Shown piece after piece: positions 19,576-51,800 of a stretch of DNA of 64,000 bases. Made by a program: the position numbers and the translations under genes. How positions within the stretch are numbered: the stretch's first letter is position 1; every line of letters starts with the position of its first letter. The stretch spans positions 5,766,001 to 5,830,000 of the forward strand of contig OZ024753.1 in NCBI GenBank assembly GCA_964016885.1, read 5' to 3'. Under the pieces are notes generated by a model, which saw only the letters and a list, made by a program, of their open reading frames with translations, had not been told where the DNA came from and made no database searches. This DNA is from Eledone cirrhosa (taxonomy: Eukaryota).

Positions 19576-20180
19576 ACGTGGGAAAGTAAGAAATCGGAGA
19601 ATAGACCGTTAAAACATGTTTATTTAAAACAGCACCTACGTACGTTTCGCCCAGTTGGGCTTCTCAAGGGCATAAATAATCAAAAGTGTTCCTTACATTG
19701 CTCAAAATAAGCATTGAGTACATGCGTATCGACAATAGTAAGGTTGTAACCTCATCTCGTAGCAGATAAAAAAAAAATAGAAAAAAAATTTGTCCGGGAA
19801 AGACTGCCCTAACACCGGCCAGAGTTACATCCCTTGATCTGCTGCAAAATCAAAACAGGCTATTTTTGCGAGCAATGAACCTTGACGTGGATTTAACCCC
19901 CAAAACTCTTTCCGAGCAATGTAAGGAACACTTTTGATTATTTATGCCCTTGAGAAGCCCAACTGGGCGAAACGTACGTAGGTGCTGTTTTAAATAATCA
20001 TGTTTTAACGGTCTATTCTCCGATTTCATACTTTCCCACGTGCTTACGCTCTGCTAACTCTCTAGCCCACTAAATATTAACACTTCGAATATTTAATACT
20101 GCCGGCACTAGTATCGAGCACCTTTGGCATACGCTACTTGGCAAATAACTATATGTATCACCTATCCTCCCCCTTTTTTT
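19576..20180. mobile_element. Fold-back Penelope-like element, 128-bp arms, 210-bp spacer
   Basis: 19576-19703 is the reverse complement of 19914-20041; each arm carries a hammerhead motif; spacer encodes MNLDVDL, resembling a PLE ORF end. Confidence 0.8.
19946..19985 (+). ncRNA. Minimal hammerhead, U3-A8 variant (mirror copy at 19632-19671, minus)
   Basis: GCCC-UUGAGAA-GCCCA ac UGGGC-GAAA-CGUACG-UA-GG(U)GC; palindromic ACGUACGU. Confidence 0.75.
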
Positions 20181-20953
20181 CTCTCTCTCGATACGTAAAT
20201 ACTGTATATATATATGTATATATATATGTATATATATATATAATATAGAAATGGCTTCTACAGGACTAGAACTGTTTCATTCGGGAGAAATAATTTCTAT
20301 ATTAAATATTTATACTCTCCTATGTATTGAGTACCTTACTTACTGTGGTTACCCCCGATTGAACCCGGGATAAACATATATATATATATATATACAGAGA
20401 GAGAGAGAGAGAGAGAGAGAGAGAGAGAGAGAGATATGCATGTATATATGTATATTCAATGTCTGTTTGTATGCTGTGGTATGATATATTTCTAATATAT
20501 GACATCTGTCGTATGAGGTGCGTGTATGATATGCTTGTAGTCACATTGCTAAGCACTATATATTAACTGAAGTGGAAACGATATATTGTCCAAAAACGAT
20601 AAATTTTATAGAACTTAAAATATTCTATTGAATTTGGCCGTCTTTCATTGAACATTGAGTCATGTTGCGCAGCTCAGTTAGGCACATGTAACGACATCTA
20701 GAAAACATACCGGAAGTCAAGTGGATAGGCTGTTATGAAACTTAACGAATCATAATTAATTCATTAACTTCTCTTCGGGAATCTATATTAAATCACAGAA
20801 TCGTTTGCTAATTAATTCTTAAATATTTCCCAAATCTTCCAACTATTGAATTAATTATATGGAAATAAAGCTACCCATGTGGTCATAGCATAGATAATGA
20901 TTGAACAGTTAATTCCTAATATATAAAAATGATTAATCATTATCATATAGAAG

Positions 20954-21021
20954 CTGGGTATAACTGGCTATAACTGGATATAACTGGATATAACTTGATA
21001 TAAATGGATTCAACTGGATAT
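20954..21021. repeat. 10-bp tandem repeat (AACTGGATAT) x~7
   Basis: Direct reading. Confidence 0.85.
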
Positions 21022-21422
21022 TTTAGAGAGGTGGAGTTATTCAATGAGTCTCATGTGGTTAGAGTTTAAGGAGATTATTGTCGAATATCTGTCACTAAAA
21101 CAGAAACATATCCACACACACGCAGACACACATGCAGACACACAGGCACCCCCATATGTACATGTATGTATGTATATATATATATATATATATATATATA
21201 TATATATATATATATATATGTAAATAAATATAAATATATATATATATATATATATATATATACAAATGAAAATATATATATATATATAAATGAAAAAATA
21301 TATATATATATATATATAAATGAAAATATATATATATATAAATAAATAAAAAAAAAAAAATATATATATATATATATGTATAATATTAAATAAATGGAAA
21401 ACTATATTTATAAAACCATATT

Positions 21423-21488
21423 TATTTCATTATATATATTTCGGGGATATCATATTAACAATATGCTATGCCTTCATCAGACAAAATA
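21423..21488 (-). ncRNA. Type I hammerhead-like motif
   Basis: UAUUUUGU-CUGAUGA-long stem II-GAAA-UAUAUA-UA-AUGAAAUA; 8-bp stem I; same family as 45851-45916. Confidence 0.75.
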
Positions 21489-21647
21489 CAATATAAACAG
21501 TTTTATAGATAAATAGATTCGAGTGCTTTTATATCAGTTATAAATATTTACTAGTTGTAACCCAACAATTCTAAATATAACTTTCCATATATATATGTAT
21601 ATGTATATATATGAGATGTGAGAAAAACCACAGACCCTCCATCTCTA

Positions 21648-50017: not shown

Positions 50018-50361
50018 TATAATTATAGACGTAGATGACGTAGCACAGACTGTTAAAATTCTACATAGGTACCAGCGTAGTCCAATAGTGTTTGTAATTG
50101 TCTGGGTATATCCTCGACTGCCTTCATCAGAAACTCAAGCGGTATGTTGATCAGTATAAGACGATTGAGTTCCCCGAATTGAGTCAGGGCTTCTTGGTGT
50201 GCATTTATCTGGACGTTGGTGACACAGCCAAAGTCCTGGAAATCGGAGATCAAGCTACTCACGAACATTACGAGCTAAATGAGAAGGGGAGCGCCCCATT
50301 TTGTACAAATATAAGGTCATTCATGTTGTCGCAAGTGACCACATTAGGCAAAATGTTATTG
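50018..50361 (+). CDS. Putative exon of the same unknown gene, with an apparent +1 frameshift near 50095
   Basis: Acceptor ttttattttaaacAG| (50017); donor TTG|GTAATT (50361/50362); IIIDVDDVAQTVKI in one frame and IYLDVGDTAKVLEI in the next look like repeats. Confidence 0.5.
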
Positions 50362-50546
50362 GTAATTTCCAAATTGCATATATTTAGCAAGAATGTTGGC
50401 TTATATCCGTCTAAATTTGTTACCCGTAGCATACGACAGTGCTCCAAAAGGAAAACAAAAATGAAAACTAGATCCTAATATATATATATATATATATAAT
50501 AAAATAACAGGAGGCTGGACTGGTGTACTTCCTTGAAAGGTTTATT

Positions 50547-50604
50547 ATACTATGAACATTTCAATGATCGGGTTCAGTATGAATCCGGTGACATCATCAG
50601 ATAT
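50547..50604 (-). ncRNA. Degenerate hammerhead-like motif
   Basis: AUAU-CUGAUGA-...CGGaUUCA uac UGAAcCCG...-GAAA-UG uu CA-UA-GUAU; base of stem II poorly paired. Confidence 0.5.
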
Positions 50605-51450
50605 TCGAAATTTAACAAAGGAATATAATAGACACAATCCATGAGGCAGAGAGACAAGAAGGCGGCCAAACATTTAGCAGTTTCTAGTCCGGTCCGCCGC
50701 CTTCACGTTCTATCCAGTGGTGAACCAACAAACCTAAATATATACATATATATATATATATATATATACATATATATATATATATATGTAGATAAATCTA
50801 CCAAGAGTTTACGGTAGTGTCCAATCCGTATGAAGAACTCAATGTATAATTTTGTACATAGATCTGTTGAATATGCATGCCAATTCTAACACATATATAT
50901 CCTAGAAACGATCGTTAAATAATGAACTTTTTTTGTTTAATATAAGGAACTGTTTCATTGTTTTATTCATTATTTGTTTAATATTTTATATATATATATA
51001 TATATATATATATATATATATATATATATATATATATATATATATATATATATATATATATATATATAACGAAAGAAATGTGGTAAGGAACCAGGTGGAC
51101 CATAAACGTCGAAATGGCTCGAGCTTAGCCGTCGGGGTCCTGCTCGTTCTTATATATATATATATATATATATATATATATATATGTCAAACATATAGAT
51201 AGCCATTTTATTTTGCAGTATCCAAAAGTAACTAATATTCCAATGCATTTACGTATGCATATCTGTACTTTAGTCTCAAAAACGAACAACAAGAGCCTAC
51301 AGACAAGAAGACATGAACAAAAATACTCATTACCTGGAAATATTCTGAATATAATTATTAATAGCATCCATGAAGCAAGGCAAATGAAAACACAAGGTAC
51401 ACTGAGAAAACAAAAACAATATATATATATATATATATATATATATATAT

Positions 51451-51800
51451 AGAAAAAGAGATGAAATCGAAAATGCAACTGGAGTCTTATTTTTAAAAAA
51501 AATATATATTTATTTGGTTTCTGAATGTTTCTTGTTTTATATGGAAAACACTTTTCCCATATAAAACAAGTAACATTCAGAGATCAACCAGATGTGAGAA
51601 AAACCACAGACCTTCCATCTCAACTCACCTTTTGAAAAGCAGAAGAACTGCGAAACCGGTAAAGGAACCAAATAAATATATATTTAAAAAAAAAAATAAG
51701 ACTCCAGTTGCATTTTCGATTTCATCTTTTTTTCTTTATACTTTCACTCGTGTAGGACACCTCGGTTATTTTTCATTTTGTAAAAAAAACCTCACTTTCT
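51451..51800. mobile_element. Doubly folded-back Penelope-like element
   Basis: Outer arms 51451-51519 / 51666-51735; inner hairpin 51520-51581 with a 3-nt loop; forward part matches 21613-21810. Confidence 0.8.
51628..51665 (+). ncRNA. 38-nt minimal hammerhead, U3-A8 variant
   Basis: CCUU-UUGAAAA-GCAG aagaa CUGC-GAAA-CCGG-UA-AAGG; stems I and II perfect; ACCGGU palindrome. Confidence 0.82.

Follow-up and report, generated by a model that had tools for sequence, protein, structure and literature searches.

In hammerhead ribozymes, core positions 3 and 8 form a C3-G8 pair (PMC3884650). Compensatory covariation to U3-A8 is found in nature and was reported to be active in vitro (Perreault et al., 2011, PMC3088659). 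The same U3-A8 pair is present in the hammerheads of Penelope-like retroelements (PLEs), with ∼1,300 matches in Schistosoma (Cervera and De la Pena, 2014, PMC4209133), and the supplementary sequences of that study include Schistosoma cores that read UUGAAAA and UUGAUAA. PLE hammerheads were described there as having low activity, and this only as dimers; the dimer model was also presented in PMC6765202. For a Poseidon element, single mutations at positions 3 and 8 abolished cleavage, cleavage needed the protein, and insertion of the mutants in vitro was normal (Frangieh et al., 2024, PMC11167929). A first-pass annotation of the DNA described here had drawn attention to U3-A8 as a compensatory core variant; this variant was already in print (PMC3088659; PMC4209133). 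U3-A8 PLE hammerheads are a known kind, and the new point is a family, designated C, in which the majority of counted copies carry a C3·A8 mismatch.

The window, i.e., the whole stretch of DNA that was analyzed, comprised 64,000 nt of contig OZ024753.1 of Eledone cirrhosa (positions 5,766,001-5,830,000; genome of 3.0 Gb in 1796 contigs; TA-repeat rich). Core 7-mers at 19950 (family A), 21651 and 51632 (family B) and 41781 (family C) were confirmed in the window sequence as they had been annotated. Counted over both strands, the window contained 34 occurrences of the two bare core words, with a shuffle mean of 17, and the evidence therefore rests on the fold and not on the words. A strict U3-A8 descriptor requiring G10.1-C11.1, a 4-bp stem II, GAA, an exact palindrome, H17 and a stem I of at least 2 bp gave four matches in the window (19950, 19667 on the minus strand, 21651 and 51632), while none of 200 dinucleotide shuffles contained any match. 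No part of a type I hammerhead was lacking at the four sites, where A17, a short stem I and a palindromic stem III accompanied G10.1-C11.1, the 4-bp stem II and GAA. The core residues U4, G5, A6, A9, G12, A13 and A14, the pair A15.1-U16.1 and H17 were present at these sites and in intact family C copies, and positions 3 and 8 formed a Watson-Crick pair (U3-A8) in the window copies of families A and B. Both the anatomy and the four strict matches against none in the shuffles bear out the annotated hammerhead motifs with a U3-A8 core, and a CUGANGA search does miss them. These hammerhead-shaped motifs are likely self-cutting. The 7-nt register of the core also held, with A, G or U at N7 across the U-A families. 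A slipped register without N7 was considered as a general explanation and rejected, because the U-A families also have A or U at this position; it is possible for family C only. The best 150 of the 339 matches of an Rfam scan included no hammerhead family and were TA-repeat microRNA noise. A repeat search of the whole window was swamped by TA repeats.

The family A motif was located at 19946-19985 on the plus strand, with its U3-A8 core at 19950-19956 and the GAA at 19969-19971. It had a 4-bp stem II, an 8-nt palindromic stem III, A17 at 19980 (GUA site) and a weak, bulged stem I of only 2+2 bp. An identical motif on the minus strand (19632-19671, core 19667-19661) lay in the inverted copy of this insertion's terminal repeat, with 19577-19703 matching 20040-19914 at 98%. 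The complete insertion (19576-20247) was a 5'-truncated PLE of Hydra type by its motifs; it consisted of the inverted repeat, the 3' end and the tail, with TA repeats at both bounds. The first family B motif (21648-21683, plus strand, U3-A8 core at 21651-21657) was a minimal hammerhead with a 4-bp stem II, a 6-nt palindromic stem III, A17 and a 3-bp stem I, and was situated in a terminal-repeat stub of ∼200 nt from a Neptune-like PLE (21614-21810, plus strand). The second (51628-51665, plus strand, core 51632-51638) had a 4-bp stem I. Its surroundings (51446-51840) comprised a family B stub on the plus strand (51552-51840) and a short inverted piece (51446-51522). The window copies are truncated stubs without ORFs and are likely inert.

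Relatives of the three families were drawn from first-look sets of 2297 (A), 550 (B) and 2699 (C) DNA candidates, with 40 scored and 30 loci fetched per family. The copies at the fetched loci were 5'-truncated, carried TA runs at their ends and were often accompanied by an inverted repeat. In relatives of all three families, ORFs with reverse transcriptase (RT) and GIY-YIG motifs were located upstream of the hammerhead, the GIY-YIG being C-terminal in family A, and the distance from the ORF end to the hammerhead was ∼0.4 kb in A, 1.2 kb in C and 1.3-1.7 kb in B. Pfam gave no RT or GIY-YIG match on 16 ORF fragments and a PDB search of ORF fragments recognized nothing. In a protein atlas, a C fragment and a B fragment were near RT/GIY-YIG-bearing clusters (0.93-0.98), with those domain families on 12-45% of the cluster members. 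With Pfam and PDB negative, motifs, architecture and atlas features are the basis of the PLE call.

Families A and C shared DKT, a CxCX5C linker, a C-terminal GIY-YIG and TA-repeat targets with the Hydra clade, which also has a hammerhead (Craig et al., 2021, PMC8557442). The RWK-type motif was RWR in family C (L128) and unmatched in the A copies scanned. Family B copies (L133, L135, L158) had DKG and a CX4CxxC linker before a C-terminal GIY-YIG, as in the Neptune clade; the linker fits the Neptune criterion CX2-5CxxC, a type that is common to the Neptune and Nematis clades (PMC8557442). Placed by motif only, A and C would be Hydra-type and B Neptune-like or Nematis. The hammerhead of the Poseidon element PAc of Anolis is likewise situated in a PLE terminal repeat, and genomic copies of this element terminate at ‘tail’ sites instead of the cut site (PMC11167929). 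PAc differs in having a C3-G8 core and in having been assayed.

The three families had been annotated as unrelated. The A and C proteins were 43% identical over 208 aa of the RT (E 4e-58), so these two families are homologous; only B was distant, and the B and C fragments compared gave no significant alignment (best E 0.061). An unrooted tree of the endonuclease domain was built from 22 groups (one long row was dropped from 23). Of the Hydra-type families linked to a hammerhead, the four with U-A and the four with C-G fell on opposite sides of one branch (98/95). One change is enough to account for these four U-A families, and this single origin within Hydra draws on the 8 hammerhead-linked families among the 22 endonuclease groups. 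With a degenerate C-G neighbor of family C added, U-A monophyly was not rejected (p 0.09). One Hydra-type change and the distant family B thus give about two origins in the window. Three independent compensatory changes, as initially proposed, are unsupported, since A and C are homologous and the third window copy is broken. The neighboring Hydra-type family carries its degenerate motif at the same place in the element.

The motifs resemble the min-HHRs of PMC4209133 in being type I, in their place in the pLTR, in the palindromic stem III, in G10.1-C11.1 and in occurring as thousands of dispersed copies and as inverted pairs. The min-HHR consensus usually has an unpaired base between 9 and 10.1, whereas G10.1 directly follows A9 in families A, B, C, a fourth family D and the sister family of C. 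Stem II is 4 bp in A and B as against 7-8 bp in the min-HHRs. Two further differences from the min-HHRs are the 6-bp stem III of C-type motifs and the predominance in family C of C3·A8, a state that was not found in the text or supplement of PMC4209133 that was searched. The hammerheads of PMC3088659 show the same compensatory covariation, and the section of that study on natural variants contains neither a tie to PLEs nor an amplified 3/8 mismatch. An amplified C3·A8 lineage was not found in our literature searches; mutagenesis papers were outside their reach, and absence from print is not established by them. The same searches gave no usable data on G8A or C3U mutants.

The family tree places the window copy of family C on its U3 side; the copy is a 5'-truncated Hydra-type PLE that retains the 3' UTR and the terminal repeat (41229-41877, plus strand). 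Its hammerhead (41776-41877, plus strand) has the core at 41781-41787, a long stem II and the GAA at 41844-41846, and it is broken. In comparison with the relative L063, 9 nt are missing after 41859, a deletion that takes out the 3' strand of stem III, U16.1, C17 (the cut site) and part of stem I. In addition, a G in stem II is replaced by T, and position 7 is A where family C has G7. As it lacks U16.1, C17 and the 3' strand of stem III, the type I core is incomplete, and judged from this sequence no hammerhead can form there. In intact family C relatives the type I hammerhead was complete: stem I had 5 bp, stem II was long, stem III had 6 bp and the site was GUC. The palindrome of this family was near-perfect over 19 nt.

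Position 3/8 combinations were tabulated genome-wide on exact-pattern copies, a count that includes only copies with intact flanks. Family A had 1244 such copies, 1214 of them with U3; the other 30 (21 C, 5 A and 4 G) all had A8, and one of the first 100 listed had G8. Family B had 4733, with U3-A8 in 99 of the first 100 listed. In family C, the C3·A8 mismatch was present in 921 of 1278 copies (∼72%), more than twice the number with U3-A8, and the majority of this family therefore does not have a Watson-Crick 3-8 pair. Position 8 was other than A in 10 of the 1278 (5 U-G, 2 C-G and 3 other), and position 3 in the first 100 listed was C in 68, U in 30 and A in 2. Decay after insertion was considered as the source of C3·A8 and rejected, because the two repeats of an insertion usually agree and the C3·A8 state is linked to many diagnostic sites in family C. 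As further evidence against decay, the same U-to-C change was seen in 21 of 1244 family A copies.

For a random sample, 139 stretches of 10 kb were taken at round coordinates (1.39 Mb) and scanned with a descriptor that left positions 3 and 8 free. This gave 107 matches, including 57 C-G, 21 U-A, 2 C-A and 0 U-G, and the reversed control gave 28, including 1 C-G and 2 U-A. Nine of the 21 U-A matches belonged to replicated families (B and D) and two were clean singletons; the remaining half or so look like AT-rich noise. One C3·A8 copy of family C (L227) was overlooked by the free-3/8 descriptor and found by a looser scan. The replicated families were mostly paired, with six C3-G8 clusters and with U3-A8 in A, B, D and the sister family of C, and no U3-G8 cluster was seen among those from the free-3/8 scan. 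Nearly all copies of A and B are U3-A8. In family C, C3·A8 outnumbers U3-A8, the outcome that the first-pass annotation itself had named as refuting its reading.

The history of family C was investigated by phylogenetic analysis. When positions 3 and 8 were masked, a single branch with SH-aLRT 99 split 42 rows from 22. The larger side contained 40 C3 rows, one U3 row whose flank was shared with a C3 row and one gapped row, and the smaller side contained 21 U3 rows and one C3 row. A sister family of C, with ∼88% ORF identity, had U3-A8 in 18 of 18 motifs matched (20 fetched loci) and in one further motif by alignment. An initial rooting on a single outgroup (245 columns) was set aside as weak and replaced by four ORF-bearing sister copies. 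In the resulting tree of 24 rows (15 C3, 5 U3 and 4 outgroup), the C3·A8 copies formed a ladder-like grade and the five U3 copies were nested within it as a clade (100/99). Monophyly of C3 was rejected (AU p 5e-5), also with ORF columns only (p 3e-7), where the U3 clade had 91/88. Six of the seven polarizing sites that bear on the root favored the C3 side and one favored C3 monophyly. Two histories, with two changes each, are compatible with this tree: a change from U to C and back, or an ancestral C·A compensated twice. The median divergence from the group majority was 0.023 and 0.046 in C3 groups and 0.026 and 0.031 in U3 groups, and by this measure the U3 groups are no younger than the youngest C3 group; the copies were best-match and first-listed sets, which biases these ages low.

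Across the four C groups and the sister family, 1 of 39 sites in the core and stems I and III differed, compared with 37 of 150 flank sites (Fisher p 0.0013). This is a single comparison, and the path it follows combines U-A and C·A time. It points to a constrained hammerhead fold, which could instead reflect another function of the terminal repeat. The catalytic residues U4, G5, A6, A9, G12-A14 and H17 were unchanged across C and its sister, and the same unpaired residues were unchanged across the replicated families, there partly by construction of the descriptor. The changes from U3 to C and from A7 to G fell on the same branch, between the sister family and family C.

The best explanation overall, which we consider probable from the sequence, is that the motifs are type I hammerheads in the pLTRs of PLEs with the published U3-A8 swap, that they act as dimer-assisted cutters, and that cleavage is dispensable for the single jump. 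The element would cut its own RNA when two copies pair via the palindromic stem III, and the element protein would likely assist. From known chemistry, U3-A8 should retain the pair that positions residue 8, and the predicted cut is after GUA in A and B and after GUC in intact C copies. The tree suggests that source elements passed U3-A8 on to whole families and that one lineage carried C3·A8 through several amplification rounds, with a U3-A8 subfamily arising later inside it. The ribozymes may thus cut precursor RNA weakly, assisted by dimerization and probably by protein, and be kept in the long term without being needed for each jump. Given a tree in which C3·A8 was amplified, selection would keep the fold and, in the long term, the pair, and cleavage in each round is likely not required. 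As C3·A8 predominates among the counted C copies, an intact 3-8 pair is likely not needed for spreading and looks dispensable for it. The annotated conclusion that U3-A8 indicates selection for catalysis is supported in part, by the constrained fold and the nearly complete pairing in A and B, and is contradicted by the amplified C3·A8 lineage of family C.

An alternative is continued cleavage by the C3·A8 core, by way of a protonated A·C wobble or of a slipped register with C3-G7 and an unpaired A before stem II; family C would then have an active new core and not a relaxed one. We regard this as unlikely. The coincidence of the U3-to-C and A7-to-G changes on one branch would fit this alternative, but the U3 subfamily retains G7. 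Elsewhere in the core and in stems I and III the four C groups were identical, yet with 5 of 150 flank sites differing against 0 of 39 core and stem sites, the C lineages are too short for the unchanged sites to be significant. PLE hammerheads commonly have an unpaired base between 9 and 10.1 (PMC4209133); on the other hand, the natural-variant section of PMC3088659 contains no core without N7, and the single mutants G8C and C3G abolish the activity of a PLE hammerhead (PMC11167929). Family C might also be the natural record of a core crossing a mismatch valley, with C3·A8 present in jumping sources over successive bursts (>900 copies), still cutting via the wobble or C3-G7, and later re-compensated to U3-A8. 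This proposal is tentative, and we doubt it more than we believe it; if true, it would add a natural hammerhead core that is new, and a dated test of the need for cleavage in PLE hammerheads.

That none of the motifs is catalytic now, the fold being kept for protein binding, priming or dimerization and U3-A8 being drift in an AT-rich genome, appears improbable. The amplified mismatch lineage, the degenerate motif of the neighboring Hydra-type family and the normal insertion of catalytic mutants in vitro (PMC11167929) would all agree with it. So would the ends of the copies: none was at the cut site, and all contexts examined (145 of 145 C-type and 40 of 40 B) ran through it; a separate count of copy ends was flooded by TA-repeat matches. 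However, the unpaired catalytic residues are unchanged across C and its sister and, partly by descriptor construction, across the replicated families, and drift alone would also yield U3-G8 families, of which none were seen. A strict requirement for catalysis, with three independent compensatory changes and no amplification of unpaired 3/8 cores, agrees with the almost complete pairing in replicated families, the near-fixation of U3-A8 in A and B, the U3-A8 clade that re-arose inside the C3·A8 grade and the conserved fold, but we give it little credence, as C3·A8 is found in several well-supported lineages of family C (921/1278 copies), one change is enough among the homologous Hydra-type families, the third window copy is broken, and family C already contradicts it unless C3·A8 is catalytically active.

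Family C bears on the role of the ribozyme for PLEs. It provides a natural matched set of a U3-A8 sister, a C3·A8 grade and a nested U3-A8 subfamily, which are one to two core bases apart and comprise hundreds of copies each. It is also the natural genomic counterpart of the PAc core mutants that were inserted in vitro (PMC11167929). If C3·A8 is dead, the family would be evidence from a genome that retrotransposition in vivo can do without cleavage; if C3·A8 cuts, it would represent a new core variant overlooked by descriptor searches.

Folding predictions were made for the monomeric RNAs. The hammerhead fold accounted for 3e-6 to 4e-8 of the predicted monomer ensemble in family B and for ∼5e-5 to 9e-5 in family A. 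Palindrome duplexes between two RNAs were predicted at -9.8 kcal/mol for A and -8.3 kcal/mol for B. The low A and B monomer fractions and the palindrome pairing fit the dimer model and the low activity of PLE hammerheads. A cleavage assay on the 38-nt monomer 51628-51665, as had been suggested, would probably be uninformative, because the hammerhead makes up ∼3e-6 of its predicted ensemble and a dimer is suggested by the palindromic stem III. For C-type monomers the predicted fraction was 1e-2 to 1e-3 (0.1-1%). The pairings of the three stems could be drawn within one RNA in all families, although these monomer fractions are low and stem I of family A is weak. From these energies, A and B would need a dimer, and the C-type, with its 6-bp stem III, could fold alone. 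The C-type hammerhead fold is predicted to compete with a rod formed from a repeated pairing segment.

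A fourth family of Penelope-like retroelements (PLEs) whose hammerheads carry the swapped U3-A8 core pair, family D, was recovered from loci L161 and L213 of the same genome. The family is Hydra-type and its hammerhead has the core UUGAUAA, a long stem II and a GUC site; the distance from the end of the endonuclease to the core was 2197 nt. Loci L238 and L205 contained one clean U3-A8 singleton each. The family at L154 is also Hydra-type and by its endonuclease the closest to family C, the family of the window motif at 41781 (∼50% at the amino acid level). Near the 3' end of the L154 element a degenerate hammerhead-like motif was present on both strands; its position 4 is an A, its stem II begins with a U-U pair and its stem I does not pair. 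This is possibly a decayed hammerhead within a multi-copy family.

In family C hammerheads (e.g., L063, L079 and L291) a 7-nt segment occurs twice, once on the 3' side of stem II and once on that of stem III, so that the RNA could alternate between the hammerhead and a rod-like fold. In the predicted rod the core residues GAA are buried in a hairpin loop. The predicted energies of the two folds lie within 1.5–3.5 kcal/mol of each other. Three short family C-related pieces in the window (46352–46582, 51037–51201 and 59226–59496) all start within stem II, ∼20–45 nt upstream of the cut site. The tail is present in all three, and starts of this kind were also recurrent among the fetched loci.

Canonical C3-G8 motifs of the PLE type were located in the window at 45859 and 47393 on the plus strand and at 12422, 45695 and 59023 on the minus strand. 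The motifs at 45695 and 45859 form an inverted pair within a single insertion. Four identical canonical hammerheads on the plus strand of L227 (8749–9682), regularly spaced at 311 nt, resemble a retrozyme array.

Among the other repeats, a SINE-like repeat of ∼190 nt had more than 12 copies within the window (1971–2184, 3169–3359, 5363–5549, 11246–11430, 18877–19049, 19255–19443, 45458–45648, 52802–52993, 55781–55966 and others). A broken element with endonuclease and reverse transcriptase fragments (25177–28006, minus strand) is, judging by its motifs, presumably LINE-like. Long trinucleotide-repeat tracts at 13837–14874 and 36416–36972 yielded low-complexity open frames.
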